Part shown: piece by piece, positions 3,050-46,139 of the stretch
Numbering within the stretch: the stretch's first letter is position 1
How the letters are laid out: each line of letters begins with the position of its first letter
NCBI GenBank assembly: GCA_964592365.1
Contig: CAZQDL010000001.1
Span: 13,198-77,197 of the forward strand
Direction: 5' to 3'
From: an uncultured Candidatus Saccharibacteria bacterium
GTDB taxonomy: Bacteria > Patescibacteriota > Minisyncoccia > Phycocordibacterales > UBA1006
DNA: 64,000 nt
Made by a program: the position numbers and the translations under genes
Notes under the pieces: model-generated
What the model saw: the letters and a program-made list of their open reading frames with translations, nothing else
What the model was told of the DNA's origin: nothing
Databases searched by the model: none

Positions 3050-6000
3050 CTATTTTTTAACAAAATTAAGCACTTTTGGCTCAAAAAGCTTTGGCATTTG
3101 CATATCTATATATATAGTTTCACCATCTGGATTAAGTTCTTCTGGAAGATATACCGTATGCTCACGCTGAAATGAAATACCTATTTCATATACATCATCA
3201 AAAACATATGGGCGTATATCAATTAGCTGTTCCCTATACGGATGAACACTAACTTCAATTACTCTATTTGCGAGATATAGCTGTACCGTTGATGAGCCTG
3301 TTCCTTCAAGAAGTAATTGCTTTCCCTTTAGAGATTCAGATGAGGTTAATGTCATTTGATACATTCCTTGTTCATCTCCTTTAGGCAAGGTTCCATCTAT
3401 TAATTCCATCTGTGAGATTGACCCTACCCCTTCAACACGTCCATCTTGAATATCATAATCAAGAAGTTCCCATGATGATGGAAGAAATACGTCAACAGAA
3501 TCTTCAAGAGGGATAATATCTATGTTTGTTGAACTTTCTGTTAATGGAAGAAACTGTTCATCATTTGGAAAAAACGGTTCACTAAAAGATGGAAGAGATA
3601 TTTCTTGCTGTCCAGGAATACCTCTATGTGTCTGGTATGACAAGATGAGCTTTTCAGAAGAAAGTGATTCGTTTGGAATACGAACCTCTTGAATACTTTC
3701 AGGCAAAAGATTTCCTAAAGAAATACCATTACTTATCTGAACATCATACAATGCATATTCTCTTATATTCCTAAGCTGCAAAAGAAGATCATCATCAGAA
3801 AGGATATAGCTTACATCTATATCATTAAACATATTTTCTACCACATGAGCTAAAGACTTCTGCTCGTTTCTGTTATTAAATATTCCCCTTGCATCATCTG
3901 GCTGATCAAGGACAAAGGGATTGTTGTAACCCTCAGGTACTGGCTGTGCCCAGTTATCATGTGATTGGAAGATAAAAGCTCCTGAAAATCCCCTATTGAT
4001 AATATTCATCCACTGTTCTTTGAGTCTAATGGCTCTAAGTACTGGATCAGTTTTTTCATAGAACGCTTCAAATCCACCTAACTCTGTTGCGATCACTGGT
4101 TTTTCAAAGCTTTGTAGAATATCAAGAGATTTTTCCCAGTATGTCTCTCCCGTATCAAGCATATTCACCCCTAAAACTGAAGATGGATAATTAATACTTG
4201 GATAGAAACTAGCATAGCTTGAAAGCTGTTCGTATTCAGCATCATTAATATCATCTAGCATCTGGAAAATAGTATTGATACGATCTACTGAATGAATTTC
4301 TATCTCGTTTCCTAAACTTATCGAAAGTATATGAGGGTTACTTCCATATTTCTCTTGTAGACGATCATATCTATTTAGCAATCCCAAAGATCCTCGTAAC
4401 CAGATATCAGTTGATTTCCAATTTGATCGTGCTGGTTGTATCATTGCAAACATCATATGTTCATCAAGTGCCTTCAGAAATTGCTTGTTAGGTGCATGAT
4501 ATATTCGTATTGCATTAGCTCCAAGAGAGGTAATAAGTTGCATACCTTCTTGATGTGAAAGTCCAACTGATCGTTGTGTATATGCACCAACAATACCCTT
4601 TACCAAAAAGGGTTCCCCATTTAGATAGATTGTTCCATTTCTTGTTTCAATGTGTCTGGTATTAAATTCTGTTGATACACGGCAAGAAGTTTCAGGAATT
4701 GATATGGATATAGCATACTCTTCAAACCCTAATGGAAATTTCTTTGTGATGGCTGTAGAACCATTAACCAAGGGATGTGTCTCTTCAATATCATTAATAT
4801 GAAGGATAATCATTTCCTGTTCTGTGTTTGCCGTAACTTCAATATCAACAACAATTTGGTCGCCCTCAATATTCTTTTGAATATCAAAATCAATAGCGTT
4901 ATGTGAAAAATAGCTAAGCCATGGATTTTTACAAGAATTAGGAGAAAATATATGACTGATATATCCATATACAACAATTCCTAATATCAAAAAAAGTATC
5001 CCAATTTTTCTATATGGAAATTGCTTTACTGTATTTCGGCTAATTGGTTTCCAATTAAATCTCTTTAAAAGAGCATCTCCAAAACCAAGAAGGAAGGTAT
5101 ACATATCTACAATTACCATAAAGGGGTAGCTTAAGATGATCACAAGCATTTGCTTTTTTGAAAACGATTGAAAGAAATAGTTTGACCTAATTGCAAACAA
5201 CAAAGGAAGAACAAAAGCTATGGCAACAATCACACCTAACCAATCTTGTAGGTATGGAAAACTGATAAGTGAATAATATATGTCACTGCCCTGAAGAAAC
5301 ATAACAGAAAGAAAACCAATAATTGTTAATGGGAAAGAAATAAAGGTTCCAAATATAGTTCCAATTGCAACCAAAGAAGCCTTCCGTTCCATTATCAAGG
5401 AAACTAGAAATACGATGAGGATACTTGATACCACAATATACATCTGTAATGATGAAGTTAATTGCAGAAAAACAAAGGTATTAATTGCGATAAGAGGAAC
5501 TACTGAAAGTACAGGAACAATGAATACCAAACTATGTAACAGCATTATCAATCTTTGCTTTGTATCAATGTTTTGAGAAAGGAAAATGTTTTTGAAGAAA
5601 TTAAAGGCAATCCTGTTGTGACCTGCTGACCATCTTCTTCTTCGTGCGATATAGTCAACCAATCGAGGAGATACACTTTCTGAAGATCCAAGGTGTGATA
5701 TATATCCAATACGGTGACCAGCAAGAATAAGTTGGTAACTTAGATAAGTATCTTCAGTAATGGAATTACTAAATCCATATTCTTTCAAGATATCAGTTTT
5801 GAAAAGTGCTGTTGTACCTGTAAAAAAAGAACTCCCGTGATAATAACGGATAAGATGGTTCATCATTTCATTTCCTACATGGTTTTGTAAACTGTCCAAT
5901 AGTTGGAAAAACCCTTTTGTAGATTTAGCTCTTCTTACCCCCTGTACAGCGACAACCATATGGGTATCTAAGTATGAAACAGAAGATGAAACTACAGCAG

Positions 6001-6421
6001 GATCAGCAATGTGATCAGCATCAATAAGGAAGGTGTAGTCTGTATGTATTTTGGGAATAATAGCATTTAACTTATCCTTTTTTGCTGAAAATCCTGTAGA
6101 CACTACATTTATTTGATGCCTAGTTTTGTTCTCTTGTATTAACTTAGTAACATATTGATACGAAGTATCAGATTCTGATTTTACAAGTATATAGATGAAT
6201 AACGTTCCAAGATATTTCTGTTTTAACAGTGACTCAATTACGGCTACGATTTCTTCACCTTCATTGTGGCATGGGATAAGGACTGAAATATCTTTATCTG
6301 AAGAATCTATCTCTTCACTTTCAGAAGAAGACATTTTTGCACTTAACAGAAGAGGAAAAAGAACATATCCTGTAACTCCAAACAGGATAACGATAACTAA
6401 AGCAATAATAACTGAAAGCAT
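3050..6421 (-). CDS. Family-2 processive glycosyltransferase (synthase-like) fused to a C-terminal clan GH-A glycoside hydrolase-like domain, with multiple TM segments
   Basis: The N-terminal part has a DAD motif and RRRRWSAGH (Q/RxxRW), which are GT2 processive synthase features. The central part has at least 6 TM helices. The C-terminal part has LGNEIE (acid/base) and IATELGG (nucleophile), which are motifs typical of clan GH-A (GH5/GH2-like). Confidence 0.6.
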   Translation of the reverse strand: MLSVIIALVIVILFGVTGYVLFPLLLSAKMSSSESEEIDSSDKDISVLIPCHNEGEEIVAVIESLLKQKYLGTLFIYILVKSESDTSYQYVTKLIQENKTRHQINVVSTGFSAKKDKLNAIIPKIHTDYTFLIDADHIADPAVVSSSVSYLDTHMVVAVQGVRRAKSTKGFFQLLDSLQNHVGNEMMNHLIRYYHGSSFFTGTTALFKTDILKEYGFSNSITEDTYLSYQLILAGHRIGYISHLGSSESVSPRLVDYIARRRRWSAGHNRIAFNFFKNIFLSQNIDTKQRLIMLLHSLVFIVPVLSVVPLIAINTFVFLQLTSSLQMYIVVSSILIVFLVSLIMERKASLVAIGTIFGTFISFPLTIIGFLSVMFLQGSDIYYSLISFPYLQDWLGVIVAIAFVLPLLFAIRSNYFFQSFSKKQMLVIILSYPFMVIVDMYTFLLGFGDALLKRFNWKPISRNTVKQFPYRKIGILFLILGIVVYGYISHIFSPNSCKNPWLSYFSHNAIDFDIQKNIEGDQIVVDIEVTANTEQEMIILHINDIEETHPLVNGSTAITKKFPLGFEEYAISISIPETSCRVSTEFNTRHIETRNGTIYLNGEPFLVKGIVGAYTQRSVGLSHQEGMQLITSLGANAIRIYHAPNKQFLKALDEHMMFAMIQPARSNWKSTDIWLRGSLGLLNRYDRLQEKYGSNPHILSISLGNEIEIHSVDRINTIFQMLDDINDAEYEQLSSYASFYPSINYPSSVLGVNMLDTGETYWEKSLDILQSFEKPVIATELGGFEAFYEKTDPVLRAIRLKEQWMNIINRGFSGAFIFQSHDNWAQPVPEGYNNPFVLDQPDDARGIFNNRNEQKSLAHVVENMFNDIDVSYILSDDDLLLQLRNIREYALYDVQISNGISLGNLLPESIQEVRIPNESLSSEKLILSYQTHRGIPGQQEISLPSFSEPFFPNDEQFLPLTESSTNIDIIPLEDSVDVFLPSSWELLDYDIQDGRVEGVGSISQMELIDGTLPKGDEQGMYQMTLTSSESLKGKQLLLEGTGSSTVQLYLANRVIEVSVHPYREQLIDIRPYVFDDVYEIGISFQREHTVYLPEELNPDGETIYIDMQMPKLFEPKVLNFVKK

Positions 6422-6482: not shown

Positions 6483-8177
6483 TTATTGTGATACTCCCCA
6501 AATACATGTTGGACCTAATGATCGATAACAATAGCCACTTGGATCTCCAGGTCTACAACTATCAGATACATATGGCATAGGTTGGCCAGTGAAGTCCACG
6601 TCTTCTGGCGGTACAAGCACGGTAATCATTCCATATGAGTGAATAGCATAATCGTTTTCAACTCCAGGATATGGCTCCATTGCAAATACAGGAGTTGACC
6701 ATAGATCTACATCATTTTCATAAAATCCAACCTTACCTTGATTCCAGTAATATGTATTATTATTACATGTAGATTTTGTAGTCATACTAGAACAAAGTGT
6801 TCTTGCTAATGAGTACGCTGAGTTAGTTTGAGGATTAGGACCCAACTCACTATATTGCAAAGGATAACATCCTGCAGTTCCAATATCTTCAATTACTGGC
6901 TTTGGATCTTTTATCTCGTCAGGCTCAGGTGTACATGCTCTAGTTGCTGAAGGTTTCACTCCAGTACACAGTGAATCATCAACCACTGTTCCTGTCTGAT
7001 TTTGACATCTTACCGTTTGAGTTTGAACTCCATCTGAAGCACTTGTCCAACCACACTGTGCGTACGCAGTACATGATGTCTGTGTTGTCTTTGATGAACA
7101 ATATCCTGTTTCTATTGGTACCTGTTCCCACGAACATCCTGCTGTAGTTCCACACTGTGTTTGAGAAAGTGATGTACAAGAATTTTGAGTATTTATACTT
7201 GCTGAACCACTAGGGTTTCCACTTGTCTGAAGTGGTTGATTGCTTTGAATAGTATTTCCGGTCCAATTACAGCTTCCGTTTACTACACTGAATTCATCAT
7301 ATCTCCAAGAGTTTCCAGAGACATATACTTCGTAACATGAACCTGATGGTGAGTAATACAAACCATCAAGTTCAGCGATCAACAAATCTTGTAAACCGCC
7401 TCCAAGTACATTAGTGGTTTTGAATCGTTGCCCCTCAGTCCAATTAAACTCATCACCATCCCAATTTATATATGTAGAAGTAGTATATGTCCCAATACAA
7501 CTATTACCATAGTTTGTATACAGTGCATCTTTAGTTGGATCATTAATATCGCTACAAGTATCAGTAGCAAATCCACTACATGCTCCCCAATCACCTACCT
7601 GAACCCATTGATATGTATCTGTTGTTGGAGTAACAGGTGCTGAACAGTTTTGTCCATTTGCAGGGTCATATACCCCACAACGTAGAAATGAACCTGATTC
7701 ATTAACACATGTACAATATGTTGTTGGGTCATCATTGTATAGAACAAGTGATTGAATCTGGATATCACCATCAATTTGAAGCTTTGCAATATTTGGAACT
7801 GGACTAGCAAAGCCAATATTTACTGAATTGTTAAGTGGAGTTCTTTGTGTCTTGTTATCTTCATTAAGTGCATTAAATTCAGCATTTCCATACGTAAGTA
7901 CGCTATCAAAGAGTGTATCTCCTGCTGATCTAAATTTTATATCTTTAGTATTGAAAGCAATGGCTTCTTCACTATCTTTAAAGAAAGTAAAGATTTGAGG
8001 TCGATCTTTAGCCCCCACCTGGAATCGAGACAAACGCCCTCCACTTCCATCAGTTTTAATTAAATTACTTGATGTGTAATTCTGTGCTCCTGCTGATTGA
8101 GTAAGAATAAGTAGTGCTGCTAAAGCTACTACTGAAATAGCACCCGCAACAACCTTTTTAATGACTTTGTTATTCAT
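6483..8177 (-). CDS. Secreted Cys-rich, Ser/Thr-rich protein with a TSR-like module
   Basis: Signal peptide (MNNKVIKKVVAGAISVVALAALLILTQSAGA). The C-terminal region carries CGWTSASDGVQTQTVRCQNQTGTVVDDSLCTGVKPSATRAC, which is shared with two neighbouring proteins. Confidence 0.6.
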   Translation of the reverse strand: MNNKVIKKVVAGAISVVALAALLILTQSAGAQNYTSSNLIKTDGSGGRLSRFQVGAKDRPQIFTFFKDSEEAIAFNTKDIKFRSAGDTLFDSVLTYGNAEFNALNEDNKTQRTPLNNSVNIGFASPVPNIAKLQIDGDIQIQSLVLYNDDPTTYCTCVNESGSFLRCGVYDPANGQNCSAPVTPTTDTYQWVQVGDWGACSGFATDTCSDINDPTKDALYTNYGNSCIGTYTTSTYINWDGDEFNWTEGQRFKTTNVLGGGLQDLLIAELDGLYYSPSGSCYEVYVSGNSWRYDEFSVVNGSCNWTGNTIQSNQPLQTSGNPSGSASINTQNSCTSLSQTQCGTTAGCSWEQVPIETGYCSSKTTQTSCTAYAQCGWTSASDGVQTQTVRCQNQTGTVVDDSLCTGVKPSATRACTPEPDEIKDPKPVIEDIGTAGCYPLQYSELGPNPQTNSAYSLARTLCSSMTTKSTCNNNTYYWNQGKVGFYENDVDLWSTPVFAMEPYPGVENDYAIHSYGMITVLVPPEDVDFTGQPMPYVSDSCRPGDPSGYCYRSLGPTCIWGVSQ

Positions 8178-8327
8178 ATCTGCAATTATATCACAGCTTG
8201 ATAAAAAATAACCATATGTGGATATCTTTTTCAGACATATTGCCGTTTTCATTGTTTAAATGTATAATTTTGACAGAAACGCAGAAAGTCTGTGTAAATA
8301 ATCTTTTACAAAAAAAATCCAACACGC

Positions 8328-10208
8328 ATGAAAAACTTTATTTTCTCATTGATTCTGACGGTGTTAGGATCAATGTTTGGCTACTCGCAAGAGTTGCCTA
8401 AAACGACAGCGCAACTATCTGTTGCTCAATCTATTGATAGATTTGCATATATACATAGTAGCTATAGGAATAATCATTCACTTATGGCTGGGGTTATCAT
8501 CAATGATGATGACTTCCCATCACTAAGATTAGATAATTTTAGTATATTAGAATCTTTTCGTAACCCACTTGATACCCCTGATTTTCCGTACTTTCCAACA
8601 GAGACAAGTATTTCAAATACATTAGGGAGTATTATAGGTAACGTAAATATTTCAGAAAATCATGATAATCAAGTGCGAATTTCGATCGTTAACATTAATG
8701 ATGGGTCTGTTGTGAAACAATTCACCCTAAGAAACATGAAGATTGGAGCCATGGTACGTAATCATATGCTCGTAAATGACGATTATTTGTACATACTATT
8801 GTCAGGTAATCAAAATTCTTCAACCATTGAAGATGGATATACTGGCTTTCCATTTAGTATTTCAAAAGGAACTAGATTGAATCATGACACACCAATATTG
8901 CTTCAAGTGAGGATCTCTGATTTCAGAGTAAAAACTTACGCCTTCCCCGAAGGAACAATGTTTAAAAGAGGTAATTTAACTGCCGATGAAGATGGAAACA
9001 TCTATTTACAAGCAGTAGATTCTTTGATTTCTGAGACCTTCTATTTATTAGGTCTTAATACTGAACTTGAAGTACTATTCAAATCACCTGAAATTGCCAG
9101 AGTTAAATATGATGTAGATTTGTTTAAAACTCAAATGTTACATGCAAAAATACTCGGTAATGAATATCTTGTATATTGGAATGGTGTAGCTCCTGGGATA
9201 TATAACATATCAAGAGGAGAAAACATCATTAGTACTGATTTGAAAACAGGTCTTGACTGGTCAGAAGAAATCCAATTCCACGATGTGAATATTGAATCAA
9301 TACATCACATTCCTGGAACAGATAAATTCTTACTCGTAAGACAAGTAGGAGTACATGAACGAGTTCTTCCATGGATGCAAGTAGTAAATATCTATGGAGA
9401 AAGAACTCTATTCTTCAGAGAAAGAATTGAACGTACAAAAAATGGTGTCTCTTCATTCTCTCGCCCGTATATTATCGGTTCATATTTTGATGATCAAAAA
9501 AATCTTCACTATATGGCCATGTATAACGAGGGGGGAATAGCATCTCTTAATGGAACCACCATCGCAGATGGTACCCAAGCAGATGATACGGCTATTATTT
9601 TCAAAGGAACTCTTCAAGGAATAGATGTAAATTTCTCTTCAAAAGGAGGACTTGAGAATTTTATTCCACAAAGTGGTTCTGTAACGTACGATAGTTCTGA
9701 TGGAAATAATAATGTGGTCTATTCAGGAGTTTCTGATGTATCTAATATTATTGTAAATCGCCAAGTAGCTGAAGGCTATACGGCGGTTCCTGATAGCTAT
9801 GTTCCTAGTAACGGAAGTAACTTTGTTTTTAATGCTGATTTCAGTAATAAAAGAGTTCAAAGAACAGCAATTGCGAATATCGTAAATGGCAAAGGGCAAA
9901 CAACTAGAGATCTTGATATTATAATGATAGTAAGAGAATTTGCTGATGAAAATCTATCAACTGAAGTTTTCAATGAAAATGATTTTGCTGTTTATCCAAA
10001 TCCAGCAAGTGATGAGGTGTCAGTAAGGTTTGATAGTGATGTTGAGATTAACGTTAAGATATACAATTTAATGGGCCAACTAATTTATAGAAAAACTAAT
10101 ATTTTTTCTGGAGAATCAGTTGATGTTTCATCTTTCGCAAGAGGGATGTATATTGTACACTTTTCAAATAACGAGAAGAGTATAAGTAAAAAAATCGTTC
10201 TTCAATAG
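8328..10208 (+). CDS. Secreted protein with a T9SS/Por-type C-terminal sorting domain
   Basis: N-terminal signal peptide. The last ~80 aa (DFAVYPNPASDEVSVRFDSDVEINVKIYNLMGQLIYRKTNIFSGESVDVSSFARGMYIVHFSNNEKSISKKIVLQ) match the Por_Secre_tail/TIGR04183 pattern. Confidence 0.6.
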   Translation: MKNFIFSLILTVLGSMFGYSQELPKTTAQLSVAQSIDRFAYIHSSYRNNHSLMAGVIINDDDFPSLRLDNFSILESFRNPLDTPDFPYFPTETSISNTLGSIIGNVNISENHDNQVRISIVNINDGSVVKQFTLRNMKIGAMVRNHMLVNDDYLYILLSGNQNSSTIEDGYTGFPFSISKGTRLNHDTPILLQVRISDFRVKTYAFPEGTMFKRGNLTADEDGNIYLQAVDSLISETFYLLGLNTELEVLFKSPEIARVKYDVDLFKTQMLHAKILGNEYLVYWNGVAPGIYNISRGENIISTDLKTGLDWSEEIQFHDVNIESIHHIPGTDKFLLVRQVGVHERVLPWMQVVNIYGERTLFFRERIERTKNGVSSFSRPYIIGSYFDDQKNLHYMAMYNEGGIASLNGTTIADGTQADDTAIIFKGTLQGIDVNFSSKGGLENFIPQSGSVTYDSSDGNNNVVYSGVSDVSNIIVNRQVAEGYTAVPDSYVPSNGSNFVFNADFSNKRVQRTAIANIVNGKGQTTRDLDIIMIVREFADENLSTEVFNENDFAVYPNPASDEVSVRFDSDVEINVKIYNLMGQLIYRKTNIFSGESVDVSSFARGMYIVHFSNNEKSISKKIVLQ

Positions 10209-10220
10209 AAGGACAACATA

Positions 10221-10247
10221 AAAAGCGTCATAATGACGCTTTTTTTT
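10221..10247. terminator. Bidirectional intrinsic terminator between convergent genes
   Basis: aaaaagcgtca-taa-tgacgctttttttt. Confidence 0.65.
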
Positions 10248-10252
10248 GTACC

Positions 10253-11602
10253 CTAACAAGATTGTGAAGTTGCTGGTTTAGTTGTTGTACACTGTCCATC
10301 AGGAACAACAGCTCCCAGATTATCCTTACAAGTTACGGTTCGAGTTTGTGTTCCTGTTGCTCCTTCATTCCAGGTACATGCTGCATTCAATGAAGTACAT
10401 GCAGTTGATGATGTCGGTCCTGCACACTGATTTACCGTTGTTGTATTAGTCGCTACCCATGAACAATCTCTATTCAATGAAGTACATGCAGTTGATGATG
10501 TCGGTCCTAAACAAGAAAGGAACGTTGGTGTGTATCGATTGTTACACGCAGAGTATTCAGGACAAACATAGTCATATCTAAACTGCTGTGCTTGTGTAGC
10601 TACAATCGCATCGGTTGTTGAACTCTGATCTCCACACCAAATAGCTGAACAGTTTGGCGTATTAACCGGAGATCTAACCCATCCTGAACCAGTCCAACGA
10701 GCTTTGTACCATTCTGAGTTATTTATTCCTCCTGTGTGCACTCTTACACTCCCTTGATTAGAAAGAATCTGATTGAATTGTGTTGAAGATAATTGAGAAT
10801 GCCCCTCTGAGGTATATGTACTATATGAATAATAGTATTTGTACTGAGCTTCTGTTTGGTTAGCCATGTAATAGTCTTGAGTTGTTGAACAACCAGAACA
10901 AGTTCCTCCTGTTGCCCCCATTGGATTTAAGCTATTAACACTACCTACCTGTACCCTGCTACCGTTATACACTCTATGTTCAACCCAATTGAATGCTGTC
11001 GTGTTATCAATCCAAACTTTTTGTGAAACAGGTGATACCGTATACACCCCTTCACATGAACCCCCCGCAGTTGTAGTTGTCCATGAACCTTCACATGAAC
11101 CTAGAGAAGCTGAAGTACAACTTCCCCATGCTGATGTTTCCCATGAATATGTTGCTGGTCCATTTCCACAAAGAGTAATCAAACCATCTTCATTTGAACA
11201 AACATATCTTGGGTTAGTTGCAGAAAGGTCAGCAAGAGCTGTAGACATAATGTTTCCATTTACATAAATACCTGAAGTTGTATATGTACCCATCCATGTT
11301 GCACCAAAACGAGCAGCATCAAGAACTTGTGTAACACCATTTACTTCTAAATCTTTGAAAGCTGCTGCTTTTTCTGAATAGATTTTTAAATCATCAAAAA
11401 CTGATGCAAATGATGCTGATGGATCAGTAGCTGTCTGATCAGTAAAGATTACTCGAGCATACTTATTCTGAAGATCAGTTCCTGAGATAAACTTAGCAAC
11501 AGTTGGCGTTTGAGCTACGGCTATATATCCAAGTGCAAATGTAGCAATAGCAAGAACTAGGACTCCAGCTTTTCCTCTAAATAAATGTAAAAACTTTTTC
11601 AT
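10253..11602 (-). CDS. Secreted Cys-rich, Ser/Thr-rich protein, paralogue of the TSR-like family
   Basis: Signal peptide (MKKFLHLFRGKAGVLVLAIATFALGYIAVAQT). The C-terminus ends in GTQTRTVTCKDNLGAVVPDGQCTTTKPATSQSC. It contains an internal 29-aa tandem duplication. Confidence 0.6.
   Translation of the reverse strand: MKKFLHLFRGKAGVLVLAIATFALGYIAVAQTPTVAKFISGTDLQNKYARVIFTDQTATDPSASFASVFDDLKIYSEKAAAFKDLEVNGVTQVLDAARFGATWMGTYTTSGIYVNGNIMSTALADLSATNPRYVCSNEDGLITLCGNGPATYSWETSAWGSCTSASLGSCEGSWTTTTAGGSCEGVYTVSPVSQKVWIDNTTAFNWVEHRVYNGSRVQVGSVNSLNPMGATGGTCSGCSTTQDYYMANQTEAQYKYYYSYSTYTSEGHSQLSSTQFNQILSNQGSVRVHTGGINNSEWYKARWTGSGWVRSPVNTPNCSAIWCGDQSSTTDAIVATQAQQFRYDYVCPEYSACNNRYTPTFLSCLGPTSSTACTSLNRDCSWVATNTTTVNQCAGPTSSTACTSLNAACTWNEGATGTQTRTVTCKDNLGAVVPDGQCTTTKPATSQSC
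10385..10508. repeat. Two perfect 37-nt direct repeats (10385-10421 and 10472-10508), in-frame and inside the CDS
   Basis: attcaatgaagtacatgcagttgatgatgtcggtcct occurs twice, 87 nt apart. It encodes the duplicated peptide GPTSSTACTSLN..C. Confidence 0.9.
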
Positions 11603-11738
11603 ATATGAGAATATTGTACCATGTGTAAATAAATAATGACAAATACATTCTACACTGACATGCATTAAGCACAGCTTTTTATAGATTTATTAAAGAAAAA
11701 ATTTTGAAATGTTTTTCGTTTCCACAGAAAGCTAACTT

Positions 11739-11764
11739 AAAAAGCGTCGAGACTGACGCTTTTT
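11739..11764 (-). terminator. Intrinsic terminator downstream of the 11794..13098 gene
   Basis: aaaaagcgtc-gagact-gacgcttttt. The same AAAAAGCGTC...GACGCTTTTT skeleton occurs in the terminator at 10221. Confidence 0.55.
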
Positions 11765-11793
11765 AAATTTAAATGTTTCTTTAATAAGACTAA

Positions 11794-13098
11794 TTACGAA
11801 CATGCCGGAGCAATTGGTACAAATCTGCTATAGAAACTAGGTCCTGAAATCCATGACTCTGGACTTCCAACGGTAGAATATGACGGAGTATTATTTGTAG
11901 GTGGATTATATGGATCTCCAGAAGCATTTGTGTAGATCACACTTCCTGGGCTTCCACCTCCATTTACCTGATATTTATAGTATGGATTAACTCCAAGAGG
12001 ATTCCCATTTGAAACACACTCGTAACGATACCATGTATTATCCGAACCACTAACATAATACCCATAACAAGCATCTTGCAAATTAGTTGTTGGATTAATT
12101 GAAACCTTTGATTGATTAAAGTACCCATAACTTGCTCCCTTCCAGTTGAATGGAGAGCCATCTACCCAAATAGGGCTACAGCTACTTGTATTTGAAACTG
12201 CTGCTGTTCCGGTAATTTGAATACTATTAGAAGTAACGGTTGCTCCAGTTGATTTACAAATTGCGGTAATACTTGCATTCCAAGTAATAGGTCCAAAATT
12301 ACCATGAGACACTGGTGAAACATCAGTTTGTGCTGAAGTTGAAGTGGTTGGTCCTGATACTCTTAGGCTTACATTTTCATAAGCTGATTCATCAAAATCT
12401 ACGTTCACTATTCCATTTGCACCAGAAGTAATTGTTGGGTCTTGACTAACAGAAACATCTCCTGCTGTTAATACTGGAGCCTGACAAGAAGAAACACAAC
12501 TTTGAGATACTGCGGGCTTTGTTGCAGTACACTGCCCGTCAGAAACGACAGTACCTATATTACTTCGACACTCAACAGTTCGAGTTTGGGTTCCACTTGT
12601 ACAACTCCCCCAATTTGAAGTATACCAAGAGTAGCTCGGCTGTCCTTCACAAGGAATAAGAGTATGCCGAAATGAGCATAGATTCTTGTTGGTACCCGTG
12701 TTTTTTAGAGAAGTTGCCATGATTGAACCATCAACATTTAATCGTTGTGAGAGAGGCAGTAACGAAATATCTTCAAAAGCGTTATTTGGATTTGCAACCT
12801 TAAACCCTGAATTCTTATCACCTATCCACGTCATCCCTGAAATAAGCAGATTATTTAACACCATGAACATACTTCCTGGTTTTGGAAATTGACTCAATGC
12901 AGATCCACTTCCAGAAACATTGATTCCATATCCTGGATTATCCAAATCACCGATACTTAATCGTGAAAGTGGTTGGGGCATATTTCCTGGATGTAATAAA
13001 GGTGTTATTGGATCTCCTGGTGCTGCTTCAACCGAGGTAACAGTCATTCCTAGTACGAGTATTAATACTGTATATACAATTGTTTTTAATGATTTCAT
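11794..13098 (-). CDS. Secreted Cys-rich protein with a TSR-like module
   Basis: Signal peptide MKSLKTIVYTVLILVLGMTVTSVEA. The module is SWYTSNWGSCTSGTQTRTVECRSNIGTVVSDGQCTATKPAVSQSC. Confidence 0.6.
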   Translation of the reverse strand: MKSLKTIVYTVLILVLGMTVTSVEAAPGDPITPLLHPGNMPQPLSRLSIGDLDNPGYGINVSGSGSALSQFPKPGSMFMVLNNLLISGMTWIGDKNSGFKVANPNNAFEDISLLPLSQRLNVDGSIMATSLKNTGTNKNLCSFRHTLIPCEGQPSYSWYTSNWGSCTSGTQTRTVECRSNIGTVVSDGQCTATKPAVSQSCVSSCQAPVLTAGDVSVSQDPTITSGANGIVNVDFDESAYENVSLRVSGPTTSTSAQTDVSPVSHGNFGPITWNASITAICKSTGATVTSNSIQITGTAAVSNTSSCSPIWVDGSPFNWKGASYGYFNQSKVSINPTTNLQDACYGYYVSGSDNTWYRYECVSNGNPLGVNPYYKYQVNGGGSPGSVIYTNASGDPYNPPTNNTPSYSTVGSPESWISGPSFYSRFVPIAPACS

Positions 13099-13112
13099 AT
13101 ATCTATTATGCA

Positions 13113-14021
13113 TTAGCTCTCGATAAATTGGAAGTTATTAACATCTGCATTATCCGGACAATTTGGTCCAGGACAAGTATCATCTACTCCACATCGTACT
13201 TGTGCAGATCCAACAATAATATCATTAGTGTTATCCCCTTCACATTGAATTCTAAAGAATGACCCTGAATTACCACTTGTAATTAATCCTGAATTTTCTC
13301 CTGAAGAACTTGTCCCTCGAGATCCTGGACTATTCCAAGGAGCATTTCCTGCTGTTTGACAGTTTGATACATTCTTAGAATTCCAAGAAACAGTAGCAGT
13401 TTGTCCACATGCACCAATATTTGCTGACGATCTTCCATTTACAAGAACATCGATGGTTTCAGCACATGGCCCATCAGCATCTGAAGGAGTGTTTGCTCGC
13501 GAAACGTTAGAAAAATCTAACAATCCCATTCCAACCTGAACATCACCTTGTGATTGACCACTTACATACTGTGTATCCTTTGCTTCTCCTGCTGAAAATG
13601 AACCAGTATTTGTTGAGTACACTACAGTTTGAAGACCTTCAATTGTTCCTGTATATCCACCCCATGCGAAATTTCCATCGGGAGAAAGTGCATCTGCTTC
13701 ATCATCGGTACCGTAATCAAAATCAATCCATCCAAGTGTCTCATTCCATCCCCTTCCGGTGAAATATCCGCCTCCATTCTCGGTAGTTACATAACTTACT
13801 GAATATCCATGATCAGGTTCCCATGGATCAGTAAGAGAATTAACATAAATGTTTTGACCATCCTCAGGTAAGTTTGTTGCGATAATATACCCAGTGAGAT
13901 TTCCTGTGTTCTGATAGGTACTACAATCAACCTGAGCATCAGATTGAAAAGTTGGTACACTTACCCCTACGATAAGTGAAAGAGTTAAAACTACTGCAAT
14001 TTTTTTCATCATGTTTTTCAT
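13113..14021 (-). CDS. Secreted protein, Gly/Ser/Thr-rich and Cys-containing
   Basis: Signal peptide MKNMMKKIAVVLTLSLIVGVSVPTFQSDAQ. No recognisable catalytic motif. Confidence 0.5.
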   Translation of the reverse strand: MKNMMKKIAVVLTLSLIVGVSVPTFQSDAQVDCSTYQNTGNLTGYIIATNLPEDGQNIYVNSLTDPWEPDHGYSVSYVTTENGGGYFTGRGWNETLGWIDFDYGTDDEADALSPDGNFAWGGYTGTIEGLQTVVYSTNTGSFSAGEAKDTQYVSGQSQGDVQVGMGLLDFSNVSRANTPSDADGPCAETIDVLVNGRSSANIGACGQTATVSWNSKNVSNCQTAGNAPWNSPGSRGTSSSGENSGLITSGNSGSFFRIQCEGDNTNDIIVGSAQVRCGVDDTCPGPNCPDNADVNNFQFIES

Positions 14022-30319: not shown

Positions 30320-30661
30320 CTATATTTGAGATCTTGCCAATTGCTTATGTGAAAGGGGTATTCTTTCTCTTACCCTGCTAAAGTTATTTTCATAGAATGA
30401 TTCTAATACACACTCATGCAACAAAGATGATCGTGAAACATCGGATATATTTAAGTATTCTGCTGAAACCTTAAGCTGTTCGCCATCAATTTTTTCACAT
30501 ATATCCAGTTTCTTTTCATGATGGCACTCATCAACGGAACAAACACTATCAGGAATTTGATGTCTATTTGAATGTTGTGCATGCACCTGAAAAGAATGAT
30601 GACCAACAAGCATCATCACGATGAATATCATTCCTATGCTTTTATAGAAAGCTGACAACAT
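30320..30661 (-). CDS. Small secreted His/Cys-containing protein
   Basis: Signal peptide followed by H- and C-containing patches (HAQHSNRH, CSVDECHHEK). It may be metal-binding and sits adjacent to the DUF305 gene. Confidence 0.35.
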   Translation of the reverse strand: MLSAFYKSIGMIFIVMMLVGHHSFQVHAQHSNRHQIPDSVCSVDECHHEKKLDICEKIDGEQLKVSAEYLNISDVSRSSLLHECVLESFYENNFSRVRERIPLSHKQLARSQI

Positions 30662-43974: not shown

Positions 43975-44619
43975 TTATGTATTCAACTCTGGAATATTTC
44001 GATGTCCTTCACCTGGGTTAAACATGTTGTAGAATACTTCGATAGCTTGTTGGGTGTTTAGCTGTTCTGAACGTACACCAAAACGTGATAGCCCACCCTT
44101 TACGATAGCTACACGCTGTTCAAGCTGACTTCGCTGTTCTTCGAATCTTTGAGTCTCTTCTTGAAATGACTTTTTCTTTGTAGAAAGTAAGTCCTTAAAT
44201 ATACTACTGGTGCTTTGTTGTGCAGTGAATGCCGCTCCTGAATATGGAACAACTACATAAAATCGTTTAGACATGATATTTACTGAGTCAGTAAACCATC
44301 TGATAAATTCAATATATTCTCTAGTTTGTAATCGAAGAAGCTCTTCTGTTTGTTGTCCAATTCTTTGCTCAAGAGTCATTAGATATGGCTTTATATCATA
44401 TCTACGTGATCCAACTGCAATTTGAACAGGGAAATCAAGTGAGTTGAGGAATCCTTGGAATTGCATAATAACAGCTTGCTGTTCATCTTCTGATTTTAAG
44501 GCAATGTTAATAGCCGAAGCAAGTAATATTGCTCTTAAACTTCCATCTTGAAGTACTACAATACCGTCACGAATTTCTTTGATAGGTATAAAATCTTGTG
44601 TTCTTGGTCCGTTTGCCAT
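43975..44619 (-). CDS. VirB4 N-terminal-domain-like protein (soluble, 214 aa)
   Basis: The N-terminal segment FIPIKEIRDGIVVLQDGSLRAILLASAINIALKSEDEQ resembles the conserved start of VirB4/TrbE ATPases (compare Agrobacterium VirB4 LPYIGHLSDHIVLLEDGSIMSIARIDGVAFELEE). It lies directly downstream of the VirB3-like gene. Confidence 0.45.
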   Translation of the reverse strand: MANGPRTQDFIPIKEIRDGIVVLQDGSLRAILLASAINIALKSEDEQQAVIMQFQGFLNSLDFPVQIAVGSRRYDIKPYLMTLEQRIGQQTEELLRLQTREYIEFIRWFTDSVNIMSKRFYVVVPYSGAAFTAQQSTSSIFKDLLSTKKKSFQEETQRFEEQRSQLEQRVAIVKGGLSRFGVRSEQLNTQQAIEVFYNMFNPGEGHRNIPELNT

Positions 44620-45122: not shown

Positions 45123-46139
45123 TTAAGATGAAAAAGATATGCTAATATTTTCTGAAGCTGATTGTAAAATATTATTTATACTGTCTAGATTTACCCCAAT
45201 ATCAACATTTCCAGATTGTCCTCCTGATGAAATAAATAGTTCATTCTGTCTTCCAAAATCTTGAGGAGCTTGATTTTCATTATTGATAGACCACTGTACG
45301 AAAAGATCAGTAAAATTTCTTTGTATAGTACTCATGTGTAAAGGATGGAAAGAAAATTTTACCTGAGATCCATTTATTTCTGAACGAGTATTTAATGCTC
45401 TTTGAGTAAGAATTCTTTCCTTTTCATCAATTTCGTAGAATAAGATTTTTGGTAAGAAGGTATTTGTTGAAATATCAATAGTGTTACGCGCAAAAGAGTT
45501 TTCTCTTCTGTCATTTGCCGTCACGCTAATCTTTTCAGTAAAGTTTAGCGCCCCTGCTTCTATCGTATATGATTGTCTTCCAAAACCAGATGCCTTACTA
45601 TCATTAGTGTAATTATTTTCCCAATAGTAAATTAAATTTTTAGCATCAGTTGGTGAAATTAACTGAGTTTGAGGAATTGCTGTTATCTTTATCGTTGATT
45701 GAGGTAAGGGAAGTACCTTTCCTTTATAAAAAGGAGGGATATATCCATCTTCAACTTCCCAAAGAAGATCTATTTCTGAAGGTGAAAATCTAAGTTCTTT
45801 TCTAAAAACCTGATTACCAATTTCAATAACAGCAGTAAGGTTAGTTACACTACCTAAAGAGCCTGTTCTAAAAACAAATTCCTTTGCTCCATAATCTGCG
45901 CTTTTTCTCTCACCATTTTCAAACCAAGAAATATAATAGTTATTAAGATTAAAGCTATAACTATTAAGAATTACTCGAACTTCTTCATCAACTCCAGGAA
46001 TAAGGGGGATTGTTTCAACTAAAATATCGTTTTCTGAATAAAGTGATACCCCTTGGGCCTTCACTTCTTTGGTAACAAGAAAAAAACTGATTATCAGAAA
46101 AAAGATTAGAGATATAGTCAGTAGAGGTTTTCTTTTCAT
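45123..46139 (-). CDS. Secreted or bitopic protein (338 aa), possible T4SS accessory component
   Basis: N-terminal signal/anchor sequence. No known motif. In an operon with the VirB3-like and VirB4N-like genes. Confidence 0.4.
   Translation of the reverse strand: MKRKPLLTISLIFFLIISFFLVTKEVKAQGVSLYSENDILVETIPLIPGVDEEVRVILNSYSFNLNNYYISWFENGERKSADYGAKEFVFRTGSLGSVTNLTAVIEIGNQVFRKELRFSPSEIDLLWEVEDGYIPPFYKGKVLPLPQSTIKITAIPQTQLISPTDAKNLIYYWENNYTNDSKASGFGRQSYTIEAGALNFTEKISVTANDRRENSFARNTIDISTNTFLPKILFYEIDEKERILTQRALNTRSEINGSQVKFSFHPLHMSTIQRNFTDLFVQWSINNENQAPQDFGRQNELFISSGGQSGNVDIGVNLDSINNILQSASENISISFSS

Follow-up and report, generated by a model that had tools for sequence, protein, structure and literature searches.

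Sorting domains of the type IX secretion system (T9SS) are taken as a sign of outer-membrane export of the Bacteroidota type. The described cargo proteins with a type A C-terminal domain (CTD), amongst them NucA, FspA, RemA and RemZ of F. johnsoniae (PDB 8GLK, 8GLJ, 8GL6, 8GL8), RgpB of P. gingivalis and mirolase of T. forsythia, are built to a common plan in which a signal peptide is followed by a passenger, a linker and a CTD of 70-80 aa. Type A CTDs carry a nearly invariant and functionally important Lys close to the C-terminus, K1110 in RemZ (PMC10994853). Solved structures of the translocon complexes show that the conserved motifs of type A set the fold of the domain without contact to SprA or PorV, and that the CTD binds PorV within the SprA pore, where the contribution of SprA is large (PMC10994853). 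Bacteroidetes also stand out by the Q-rule, under which the majority of signal peptidase I (SPI) substrates have Gln at the +1 position; the Bacteroidetes mean is 71%, compared to less than 20% in most other groups examined (Chlorobi, Chlamydiae, Spirochaetes) (PMC5837995).

The gene described here has the same plan, and its product is a bona fide type A CTD protein that has been conserved for long in a lineage expected to lack both an outer membrane and a T9SS. The gene lies in a window of 64 kb, by which we mean the whole stretch of DNA that was analysed, and belongs to a clade of Parcubacteria in which related proteins occupy the same site. A literature search found no paper on T9SS or Por CTDs in CPR, Patescibacteria or Parcubacteria.

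The protein and its type A CTD

The CDS at 8328..10208 on the plus strand, closed by a TAG stop at 10206-10208, encodes a secreted protein of 626 aa. Upstream, at 8240..8268 on the same strand, is a promoter-like site (TTGCCG-17-TATAAT, a consensus match only, at 10 of 12 positions) that would give an A-rich leader of ~55 nt without a Shine-Dalgarno sequence; about half of the genes in the window instead have a -10 box 7-16 nt before the start codon and look leaderless. The first 20 residues (MKNFIFSLILTVLGSMFGYS, followed by QE; 8328..8387, plus strand) form a predicted Sec/SPI signal peptide with a charged n-region, a hydrophobic core and small residues at -3/-1, and cleavage at GYS/QE, as predicted by our own heuristic rather than by SignalP, would expose Gln21. 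The motif [AS]/Q[EN] recurs at this position in all 8 full-length family members, and residues 2-14 are modelled by AlphaFold (AF2) as a helix with low pLDDT.

Two passenger domains are predicted between the signal peptide and the CTD. The first (aa 27-430; 8406..9617, plus strand) is all-beta and propeller-like in the AF2 model, with about 7-8 predicted blades. The full-length model, built with 9 sequences, has a mean pLDDT of 76 and a pTM of 0.73, with most blocks of the propeller region above 85, and Foldseek searches with it against the PDB return generic propellers only (WD40, Vps10/sortilin, sialidase, sGDH), all at TM < 0.5, from which no function could be assigned. Neither Pfam nor NCBIfam has a match to this domain. 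The second (aa 440-540; 9645..9947, plus strand) may be a small Ig-like beta-sandwich spacer, judging by the AF2 strand pattern at a pLDDT of 47-78. It is followed by a linker (aa 541-554, ADENLSTEVFNEND; 9948..9989, plus strand) that is predicted to be disordered, with pLDDT values of 36-49 over aa 541-564 of the full-length model; a disordered linker before the CTD would fit cleavage at this point and is not diagnostic of it.

The remaining residues are 555-626 (9990..10205, plus strand). From the letters of the sequence the last ~80 residues had been likened to a Por secretion tail; the C-terminal sequence given there is that of this ORF, and profile searches confirm for 555-626 that they are a type A T9SS CTD, with scores more than twice the curated cut-offs. 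Por_Secre_tail (PF18962) matches aa 555-624 at 61 bits, where Pfam sets the gathering score at 27 (E 1.3e-16), over positions 1-74 of its 75, and TIGR04183 matches aa 555-626 over its full profile, 1-72 of 72, at 57.8 bits against a cut-off of 23 (NCBIfam). The domain extends to the very last residue, 626 of 626, a C-terminal placement found in all 8 relatives as well. Matches of the same C-terminal residues to the type B profile CHU_C (16-21 bits, cut-off 27) and the type C profile T9SS_Cterm_ChiA (23.4 bits, cut-off 40) are sub-threshold; the domain is of type A.

Consistent with this assignment, a profile of the clade's CTDs matches the CTDs of solved T9SS substrates (8glj_D, E 3.6e-15; 8glk_D, E 1.3e-13). 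An AF2 model of the CTD alone, for which 38 CTD sequence rows were supplied, is a beta-sandwich of seven strands with a pLDDT of 95, and its best Foldseek match in the PDB, a comparison of a predicted with a solved structure, is 8glk_D at TM 0.80/0.84 and an rmsd of 1.7 A. The next matches are the CTDs of mirolase, FspA, RgpB, RemZ and RemA (entries 8qb1, 8glj_D, 7pq4, 8gl8_D and 8gl6_D), such that the modelled domain superposes on Bacteroidota type A CTDs at a TM of about 0.8 and an rmsd of 1.7-2.4 A. The same fold is found in DUF3244/Ig-like proteins of Bacteroides (PDB 4G5A, 3SD2, 3D33; TM 0.78-0.80), to which the sequence match is weak (16-20 bits, cut-off 25). These are small standalone proteins rather than C-terminal tails, and show the same sandwich outside the role of an export signal.

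With Bacteroidota type A cargo the CTD also shares its motifs, namely PNP, G, GxY and a basic C-terminus. PNP (557-559), G583, G606 and Y608 are constant in the protein family and across the 38 CTDs. The C-terminus of the protein reads SKKIVLQ, in which the Lys four residues from the end is kept (8 of 9 family members have K or R there); the second-to-last Lys, present as ..IKQ or ..IKN in 6 family members and as ..IKQ in FspA, is replaced by Leu, giving ..IVLQ. The counterpart of RemZ K1110 could be either of two candidate positions, the retained Lys four from the end or the second-to-last residue. Because the motifs specify the fold rather than contact to SprA or PorV, their retention here does not require a T9SS.

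The genome and its signal peptides

The sequence-only reading judged the surrounding gene set to be unlike that of Bacteroidetes, and its relatives and content agree. The nearest relatives of NusA, at 72-80% identity, are in 9 GTDB species genomes, 8 of which are titled Patescibacteria, Paceibacteria, Pacebacteria, Campbellbacteria or Saccharibacteria, and one clade contig (L010) has been binned in a MAG titled Crocinitomicaceae. A copy of the protein that is >90% identical is held at NCBI as NCT00045.1, 'T9SS type A sorting domain-containing protein [Candidatus Parcubacteria bacterium]'. Gene content in the window includes dnaA-dnaN, a 240-aa YidC beside a Jag/R3H protein, a VirB4-type T4SS ATPase and PG_binding_1 (peptidoglycan-binding) surface proteins. 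Several of these features are of monoderm type: the YidC has no large periplasmic domain, the VirB4 is that of monoderm conjugation, and the surface proteins carry PG_binding_1.

Patescibacteria have been proposed to have no outer membrane (PMC12102498). By its nearest genomes, its NCBI label and its monoderm-type locus, the producer is not of the Bacteroidota/FCB group and probably no diderm, and, unlike Bacteroidota cargo, the gene stands in a CPR genome with no T9SS gene within the 64-kb window. The earlier statement that T9SS core genes are missing from the window holds for the ~40 larger ORFs, scanned with Pfam, and for 10 unannotated ones, scanned with NCBIfam; among these ~50 ORFs there is no outer-membrane or LPS family either, and no glutaminyl cyclase was found among the window ORFs scanned. 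The genome as a whole probably has neither a T9SS nor an outer membrane. We conclude that the domain is a true T9SS CTD of type A and that the genome encoding it does not belong to Bacteroidota.

Five independent assemblies contain the identical protein beside the same neighbours, NusA and KsgA amongst them. A member of the same protein cluster that is >90% identical sits on a contig of 315,005 bp, the length also listed for the longest contig that holds the window's exact DnaA and ClpP sequences. The composition of the CTD gene is typical of the window (GC 0.34, GC3 0.24; codon-usage deviation -0.039 versus a window mean of -0.002, sd 0.041), although GC, GC3 and synonymous codon likelihood leave room for an old transfer, or for one from a donor close in GC, and cannot date it.

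Signal peptides of the genome bear a second resemblance to those of Bacteroidota. Using a crude heuristic predictor of cleavage sites, Gln was found at +1 in about 9 of the 11 signal-peptide proteins in the window, and the same heuristic placed it there for 21 of the 39 candidate signal peptides of clade loci, compared to 5 of 72 from the remaining loci, most of them of Saccharimonadia. By this heuristic, a majority of the clade's signal peptides follows the Q-rule. Gln21 of the CTD protein was considered as a sign that its gene came from Bacteroidota, and this argument was dropped, as native secreted neighbours have Gln at +1 too. The Q-rule of the clade suggests a link to Bacteroidota secretion biology that is deeper than a simple relic.

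Inheritance in the clade and the source of the CTD

In an exhaustive search of 1.84 billion representatives by HMMER, the passenger alone had 7 relatives, six of 591-619 aa and one partial of 317 aa, and none outside the clade. PF18962 is above its cut-off in all 7, and this confinement of the passenger family to a single clade is a further difference from Bacteroidota cargo. A search with the full-length protein returned itself, one homologue of 64% identity and one CTD-only match. Positional orthologues of 27-64% identity are found in at least 4 other species-level lineages, all of which have kept the CTD, and every relative with available context has the gene at the same locus, in an island between TIM/PGK and NusA. 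For instance, the gene order in L087 is PGK-TIM-GT2-x-[CTD]-TSP1-like...NusA-KsgA-UvrD, and the CTD protein there is 34.5% identical, versus 87% for NusA, 91% for TIM and 77% for UvrD. In L088 the values are 27% for the CTD protein and 87% for TIM, with L086 and L090 fitting the same picture, so that NusA and TIM are at 87-91% across the clade while the CTD protein is at 27-64%. Relatives were viewed as flanks of ~10 kb, and the genome itself as the 64-kb window; synteny is conserved in sister species on contigs of up to 303 kb.

Thus, the gene evolves very fast at a fixed place in a hypervariable island and is inherited vertically. Within the protein, the CTD has a mean pairwise identity of 32% and the propeller one of 28%; of the 15 columns that are invariant in the family, 6 fall in the CTD. 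Because the domain has been inherited across the whole clade, it probably functions without a T9SS, and it may be a clue to a host, or a donor of the gene, amongst Bacteroidota.

The CTD is not confined to this protein. Pfam CTD matches were found at 4 of 114 C-termini of clade ORFs, and proteins that join FG-GAP repeats to a CTD are encoded in the same island of two sister genomes (L008:18649-20121 and L010:8300-9742), with a second paralogue elsewhere in the L008 genome. These have the architecture of the FG-GAP/VCBS-repeat and Por_Secre_tail proteins of Flavobacteriia, which occur in forms of ~470 aa and ~850 aa, and share 25-36% identity, over as much as the full length, with proteins labelled Flavobacteriia, Crocinitomicaceae or Bacteroidia. 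More than 1320 homologues were found, the named ones assigned to Bacteroidia, Flavobacteriia, Crocinitomicaceae, Flavobacterium or Psychroserpens, except for two under Planctomycetota and one given just as 'bacterium'. The homologue contexts that were checked are Bacteroidota-like, one being a SusC/SusD locus and others holding several CTD proteins together with central metabolism. Since the FG-GAP+CTD proteins form a large and typically flavobacterial family, the module ultimately derives from Bacteroidota.

The window protein resembles these proteins in placing a beta-propeller before the CTD; its propeller has no FG-GAP/VCBS match and the similarity lies in the CTD only, so that the two propellers may or may not share an ancestor. 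If the FG-GAP family is a guide, the whole gene of the 626-aa family may have been transferred from Bacteroidota; fusion of a CTD onto a native propeller is equally possible. In an all-versus-all BLAST of 128 CTDs, the clade CTDs of the two passenger families do not group apart from those of Bacteroidota. They are as near to Bacteroidota CTDs (30-43% identity) as to one another, and similarity does not settle whether they have a single origin. A CTD HMM run over 1.39 Mb of loci, mostly Saccharimonadia DNA around nusA, found CTDs in the loci of this clade only, a sample of one genomic neighborhood that says little on CPR at large.

Role of the CTD and the surrounding island

On balance we favor the view that the 626-aa protein is a surface or extracellular protein of Parcubacteria that stems from an old transfer from Bacteroidota/FCB bacteria, with the CTD retained without an export role. 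The T9SS-cargo architecture would have entered the ancestor of the clade by horizontal transfer from such bacteria, followed by vertical descent and fast evolution at the fixed site between TIM/PGK and NusA; for this passenger, the transfer would have run from a Bacteroidota donor, as for the FG-GAP+CTD family, and would be old. Since an outer membrane is held to be missing in Patescibacteria, export through Sec and cleavage by SPI (GYS/QE) would suffice to put the protein outside the cell. The CTD would no longer be an outer-membrane export signal, and would be kept as a stably folding C-terminal beta-sandwich with a T9SS-independent role, probably in holding the protein at the surface or in binding to a partner, be it on the envelope of the producing cell or on a host cell. 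A generic beta-sandwich tag, one of the explanations put forward from the sequence, would be the best remaining functional reading. Against an old transfer with an export-idle CTD stands the expectation that such a domain might decay, yet all members keep a full-length, above-threshold and strictly C-terminal CTD, which hints at a specific partner.

That hint is also one of the grounds for a host-directed role, which we regard as unlikely. Here the clade would live on Bacteroidota (for example Flavobacteriales), to whose secretion biology its CTDs and Gln+1 signal peptides would be fitted, and the CTD would be a handle that binds PorV or other T9SS surface parts of the host, or the host T9SS would display proteins delivered to its periplasm. 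It is similarly doubtful that the whole clade took up type A CTDs and Gln+1 (pyroglutamate) processing as an epibiont of Bacteroidota, in which case the CTD would be a host-directed module and not a relic. The clade does join two traits characteristic of Bacteroidota, type A CTDs on several passengers and the Q-rule, a CTD so strictly conserved in a protein that evolves very fast suggests that it binds a partner, FG-GAP+CTD genes have clearly been exchanged with Flavobacteriia-like bacteria, and co-varying abundance could have produced the L010 contig in a Crocinitomicaceae-titled MAG. However, there is no known host, the co-binning is a single anecdote that may be plain contamination, no route of delivery into a host periplasm is evident, and a shared habitat alone suffices for gene transfer from Bacteroidota. 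Nor is binding from the outside obvious for a domain that docks on PorV inside the SprA pore with a large share of the contacts made by SprA (PMC10994853). It is very unlikely that the CTD is a true sorting signal in a clade that owns a T9SS or a reduced form of it (for instance a PorU-like C-terminal transpeptidase that cuts off the CTD and fixes the protein to the envelope), or even an outer membrane. The strictly C-terminal CTD of all members, the disordered linker before it, as in real cargo, and a Q-rule that matches Bacteroidota envelope biology are what such a signal would predict, but the ~50 window ORFs hold no T9SS, outer-membrane or LPS family, and the monoderm-type features of the window suit a phylum proposed to be without an outer membrane (PMC12102498). 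Furthermore, a relative with contigs of 388,132 and 303,395 bp appears to have a small genome. With more than 12 genes required for a T9SS, the one for the ~2400-aa SprA amongst them, such an apparent genome size counts against a T9SS in the clade.

Horizontal acquisition, another proposal of the sequence-only reading, stands as an old event at the level of the clade, given the relatives of the FG-GAP+CTD family in Flavobacteriia and other Bacteroidota, and fails as a recent one. A recent, strain-specific gain, in which this genome alone took up a cargo gene of Bacteroidota, would suit a monocistronic gene that has both a promoter-like site and a terminator to itself, a leadered 5' end without a Shine-Dalgarno sequence amongst many leaderless-looking genes, and the failure of tblastn to detect the CTD gene beside NusA in several relatives. 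It is nevertheless most improbable, contradicted as it is by the positional orthologues, by native GC and codon usage, and by the lack of any passenger relative outside the clade amongst the 1.84 billion representatives. The proposal of a contig of mixed origin was rejected altogether: the Bacteroidota label of the MAG that holds L010 would fit a Bacteroidota fragment joined to a CPR contig by assembly or binning, but identical junctions in five assemblies, uniform and native composition, synteny with positional orthologues in sister species and clade-specific flanks leave it practically no chance.

If complete genomes confirm the absence of a T9SS, the CTD would have a T9SS-independent function and automatic annotations of "T9SS cargo" in CPR would be misleading. 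Taken together, the CTD, the Gln+1 signal peptides and the flavobacterial-type FG-GAP+CTD genes offer a concrete lead, which can be tested, to the donor of this Parcubacteria clade and possibly to its host. To our knowledge, most Parcubacteria have no known host, and if the CTD is host-directed, CTD content would predict host identity for such host-less CPR lineages.

The neighbors of the CTD gene belong to the same variable island of secreted proteins. The divergent neighbor (6483..8252, minus strand; probable start 8177) encodes a Cys-rich secreted protein with the signal peptide ...SAGA/QN, and its C-terminal part resembles the TSP1-like neighbors in relatives. On the other side, the CTD gene had been described as convergent to a TSR-like cluster, and the gene it faces (10253..11665, minus strand; probable start 11602) does encode a secreted, Cys-rich protein with the signal peptide ...IAVA/QT and a TSP1-like repeat (TSP1_ADAMTS, 20.3 bits, under the cut-off). 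A homologous C-terminus follows the CTD gene in L086, L087, L088 and L090, and both genes flanking the CTD gene are clade-specific. The convergent stop codons are separated by a bidirectional terminator-like hairpin at 10220..10247 (A5, stem AGCGTCA, loop TAA, stem TGACGCT, T8), which was read from the sequence and was not listed by a consensus scan. Two more secreted island proteins, p439 and p302, are encoded at 11794..14021 on the minus strand, followed by NusA; p439 has a TSP1 repeat (24.0 bits versus a cut-off of 23.8), and p302, with the signal peptide ...SDA/QV, stays beside NusA in relatives.

A type A sorting domain in a Patescibacteria genome

The plus-strand ORF at 8328..10208, found where the sequence-only reading had placed it, encodes a 626-aa protein whose C-terminus (...AVYPNPASDEVSVRF...SKKIVLQ) is a T9SS type A sorting domain (CTD). 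Both profiles proposed in that reading as a check are significant: Pfam PF18962 (Por_Secre_tail) matches residues 555-624 at 61 bits (gathering score 27), covering 74/75 profile positions, and the whole of the NCBIfam profile TIGR04183 is matched by residues 555-626 at 57.8 bits (cut-off 23). Neither CHU_C (type B) nor ChiA (type C) reaches its cut-off. Comparison of a profile of CTDs from related genomes (hereafter the clade) with solved structures returned 8glj_D (E 3.6e-15) and 8glk_D (E 1.3e-13), CTDs whose structures were determined within the Flavobacterium johnsoniae translocon. For residues 548-626, AlphaFold with 38 CTD sequences gives a seven-stranded model (pLDDT 95), and its top PDB match is NucA (8glk_D; TM 0.80/0.84, rmsd 1.7 A), followed by mirolase, FspA, RgpB, RemZ, and RemA, all T9SS CTDs. 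Given the profile scores, the homology to solved CTDs, and the match of the model, the domain is real and far above chance; its sequence, position, and fold, together with its homology to validated CTDs, place it in the type A CTD family. The second-to-last Lys of FspA and most relatives is Leu in the window protein, which retains the Lys four residues from the end. Cryo-EM of the substrate-bound translocon indicates that the conserved type A motifs set the fold of the CTD and not its contacts with SprA/PorV, the sole possible exception being a Lys near the C-terminus (PMC10994853). Thus, conservation of the PNP, G, and GxY motifs here is expected from selection on fold alone.

The CTD gene stands as a unit by itself, with a promoter-like TTGCCG-17-TATAAT upstream (8240-8268, plus strand), an A-rich leader of ~55 nt without a Shine-Dalgarno sequence, and a bidirectional terminator-like hairpin (10220-10247) common to it and the convergent gene. 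A signal peptide with cleavage at GYS/QE is predicted for aa 1-20, and an AF2 model of the full-length protein (nine sequences, pLDDT 76, pTM 0.73) comprises an all-beta propeller (aa 27-430, mostly pLDDT >85) that retrieved generic propellers alone by Foldseek, a small beta-sandwich (aa 440-540), a disordered linker (aa 541-554), and the CTD (aa 555-626). This is the classic layout of T9SS cargo.

The window covers a chromosomal origin region; the genome is small and AT-rich, and GC along the window is 0.29-0.39 with no compositional break. It encodes Fic, PGK, TIM, a 1123-aa GT2 fusion, NusA, KsgA, UvrD, trigger factor, ClpP, three tRNAs, a XerC-like integrase, inorganic pyrophosphatase, a VirB4-type ATPase with VanY and PG_binding_1 proteins, and Jag(R3H) adjoining a 240-aa YidC, then dnaA-dnaN, RuvC, a class A PBP, YebC, and RuvB. 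A search of one genome per GTDB species gave nine close relatives of NusA (72-80% identity, all others <=46%), with titles of Patescibacteria group, Candidatus Paceibacteria, Pacebacteria, Paceibacterota, Campbellbacteria, and Saccharibacteria, the remaining two being titled unclassified 'bacterium' and 'Crocinitomicaceae bacterium'. At NCBI, NCT00045.1, >90% identical to the window protein, is a 'T9SS type A sorting domain-containing protein [Candidatus Parcubacteria bacterium]'. These relatives and this label bear out the premise of a Bacteroidota-type tail in a non-Bacteroidota genome. Among the window ORFs scanned there are no T9SS, outer-membrane, or LPS families, in agreement with the earlier claim that the window holds no T9SS core genes. 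Patescibacteria are regarded as lacking an outer membrane, and their T4SS is of monoderm type (PMC12102498). Judged by its producer, a member of the Parcubacteria and not an FCB-group diderm, the protein probably falls outside functional T9SS cargo, for which the decisive mark would be a T9SS in the genome.

Synteny and descent of the CTD gene

The suggestion that the contig is of mixed origin did not survive comparison with other assemblies. An identical 626-aa protein with the same two flanking genes is present on 5 independently assembled metagenome contigs, the longest of which (13.4 kb) extends to NusA and KsgA. A member of the >90% identity cluster lies on a contig listed at 315,005 bp, and the longest contig listed for the window's exact DnaA and ClpP has that length too. 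The GC (0.340), GC3 (0.241), and synonymous-codon fit (-0.039 vs a mean of -0.002, sd 0.041, for window genes >200 aa) of the CTD gene are ordinary for the window. An assembly chimera is ruled out, with next to no probability left to it, by the identical junctions in 5 assemblies, native composition, and synteny in sister species.

An exhaustive HMMER search of 1.84 billion representative proteins with the passenger (aa 22-545) found only 7 relatives, of 25-34% identity, and none of them outside the clade. Apart from one 317-aa partial sequence, the relatives are 591-619 aa long, and 7/7 end in Por_Secre_tail above threshold (40.7-55.5 bits); a further homologue of the window protein is 64% identical. 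Where flanks are available, relatives carry the CTD gene in the same place and orientation. For instance, the order is PGK-TIM-GT2-x-[CTD protein]-TSP1-like...NusA-KsgA-UvrD in locus L087 and PGK-TIM-x-[CTD protein]-TSP1-like in L088, and a TSP1-like C-terminus lies convergent, downstream of the CTD gene, in L086 and L090. In L087 the orthologue of the CTD protein is 34.5% identical, NusA 87%, TIM 91%, and UvrD 77%; in L088 the corresponding values are 27% for the CTD protein and 87% for TIM. A recent, strain-specific transfer is contradicted by native codon use, the clade-confined passenger, and positional orthologues, and is scarcely credible. Judged from these sequences, the CTD gene has descended vertically within a Parcubacteria clade and evolves very fast.

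Among the 8 family members of full length, conservation of the CTD is no lower than that of the passenger (pairwise identity averages 32% vs 28%), and the CTD holds 6/15 invariant alignment columns (P557, N558, P559, G583, G606, and Y608). Por_Secre_tail was found by Pfam in 4/114 ORF C-termini of the window and clade loci, and an HMM of CTDs built here identified the two extra ones as L008:18649-20121 (491 aa) and L010:8300-9742 (481 aa), both encoded within the same NusA-TIM island. Their similarity to the window family is confined to the CTD, as they carry FG-GAP/VCBS-type repeats in place of the propeller. The L008 genome (GCA_030433255.1) encodes a further CTD paralogue of 456 aa, P0050, on its other large contig. 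At its locus (L094, JAUIMI010000001.1:308854-330224), the P0050 gene adjoins a large serine recombinase, a 1019-aa TraG/TrwB-like ATPase, an integrase fragment, and a 1020-aa FG-GAP + Ig-like + PG_binding_1 protein, surroundings that look like an integrated mobile element carrying surface proteins.

Origin and possible role of the domain

The FG-GAP+CTD protein of L008 has >1320 homologues of the same architecture, and most named ones are from Bacteroidia, Flavobacteriia, Crocinitomicaceae, Flavobacterium, Flavobacteriaceae, Psychroserpens, Taishania, or Bacteroidota; the exceptions are two CTD-less VCBS matches labelled Planctomycetota and one labelled only 'bacterium'. The homologue contexts examined are Bacteroidota-like or free-living, not CPR-like: P0034 adjoins a SusC/SusD-GH16 locus with another CTD protein, and at the P0070 and P0086 loci additional CTD proteins are accompanied by pyruvate dehydrogenase and by genes for aromatic amino acid synthesis. 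P0003, the nearest CTD-only match of the window protein, adjoins TamB and an Omp85-family protein, and its source is therefore a diderm. Identities are just 25-36%, so the transfers are not recent. The proposal of horizontal acquisition is supported as an old, clade-level event, in so far as the FG-GAP+CTD proteins have Bacteroidota relatives, and fails as to a recent arrival, given the positional orthologues. An all-against-all comparison of 128 CTDs did not separate those of the clade from those of Bacteroidota. The window gene either entered whole and diverged past recognition, or arose by joining of a CTD to a native propeller.

In a single-membrane cell, Sec export and signal peptidase would already place the window protein outside, and the CTD would serve retention or partner binding, not outer-membrane export. 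We lean towards the CTD having survived as a robust beta-sandwich at the C-terminus of a surface or host-contact protein that diversifies rapidly; the position of the protein within the TSP1-like island and the extreme rate at which it diverges are in keeping with exposure and a role driven by interactions. A resident T9SS or reduced CTD-processing system is very unlikely, being contrary to all that is visible in the window and to what is known of the phylum. It is possible, if improbable, that the CTD proteins are directed at Bacteroidota hosts by mimicry or targeting. Two observations favor such host mimicry, one being that a clade contig was binned into a Crocinitomicaceae MAG. This contig, L010 (JBLIKX010000015.1, 18.7 kb; MAG titled 'Crocinitomicaceae bacterium', Bacteroidota), is clearly of the Parcubacteria clade by its NusA (76% identical), KsgA-p314-NusA-p302 synteny, and its own FG-GAP+CTD gene, and its presence there could reflect binning contamination or co-varying abundance of epibiont and host.

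The other is an unexpected second Bacteroidota hallmark, predicted Gln+1 signal peptides. The Q-rule was put forward as a feature specific to Bacteroidetes, averaging 71% among them against <20% for most of the other groups surveyed (PMC5837995). The clade's predicted sites resemble it, since by a crude heuristic Gln+1 occurs in 21/39 signal-peptide candidates of clade loci vs 5/72 in other, mostly Saccharimonadia, loci. To our knowledge, the Q-rule has not been described for CPR. In the window, Gln is at +1 of predicted signal peptidase I sites in ~9/11 proteins (AGA/QN, GYS/QE, AVA/QT, SDA/QV, VHA/QH, SFS/QG, VKA/QG, and AIA/QE), encoded at 6483-8177(-), 8328(+), 10253-11602(-), 13113-14021(-), 22331(+), 30320-30661(-), 41113(+), 45123-46139(-), and 46220(+); the pattern recurs in L006-L014, L087, and L088. 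No glutaminyl cyclase is encoded within the window.

The T9SS CTD annotation is already public under NCT00045.1, and no paper discussing T9SS CTDs in CPR bacteria was found in the literature searched. What appears to be new is the retention of CTD-bearing proteins, in synteny, throughout a CPR clade, the flavobacterial-type FG-GAP+CTD genes alongside the window CTD family, and the Q-rule-like secretome. CTD proteins in a CPR clade should be moderately surprising to T9SS and CPR specialists, and they give a concrete starting point for tracing the clade's donor or host.

Neighboring genes and start sites

From TIM/PGK to NusA runs a hypervariable island (6483-14021, minus strand) whose secreted, Cys-rich products bear thrombospondin type 1-like repeats (TSP1_ADAMTS at 20-24 bits, about the cut-off, in 5/114 C-termini). 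Equivalents occur in L008, L010, L011, L087, and L088, with gene number and sequences varying among species and flanks 60-90% identical. The longest-ORF starts of two neighbors, 8252 (589 aa) and 11665 (470 aa), are probably wrong and the true starts 8177 (MNNKVIKK...) and 11602 (MKKFLHLF...), internal ATGs that put the signal peptide at the N-terminus and sit 9-11 nt downstream of -10-like boxes.

A G-rich Shine-Dalgarno core precedes 3/48 window genes only, and about half have an extended -10-like box (TGnTATACT, GATATACT or TATAAT) 7-16 nt before the start codon, as at 19452, 27458, 28844, 33478, 37872, 43309, 45086, 46220, and 50098. The proximity of these boxes to start codons suggests widespread leaderless mRNAs, a predicted pattern to which the CTD gene, with its leader, is an exception.

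The 1123-aa GT2 protein (3050-6421, minus strand) has an N-terminal GT2 glycosyltransferase domain, then a multi-pass membrane region, and its C-terminal ~600 aa are without a family match. It is kept at the same position in L087 (1128 aa, 42% identity), and one possible reading is an exopolysaccharide enzyme of the synthase type with an extracellular domain fused to it. Near the origin region (dnaA at 53896), two VirB4-like pieces lie ~5.5 kb apart on opposite strands: a 213-aa ORF (43975-44619, minus) matching the N-terminal part of VirB4/TrsD models, and a 615-aa ORF (50098-51945, plus) matching the TraG P-loop/AAA_10 ATPase part.
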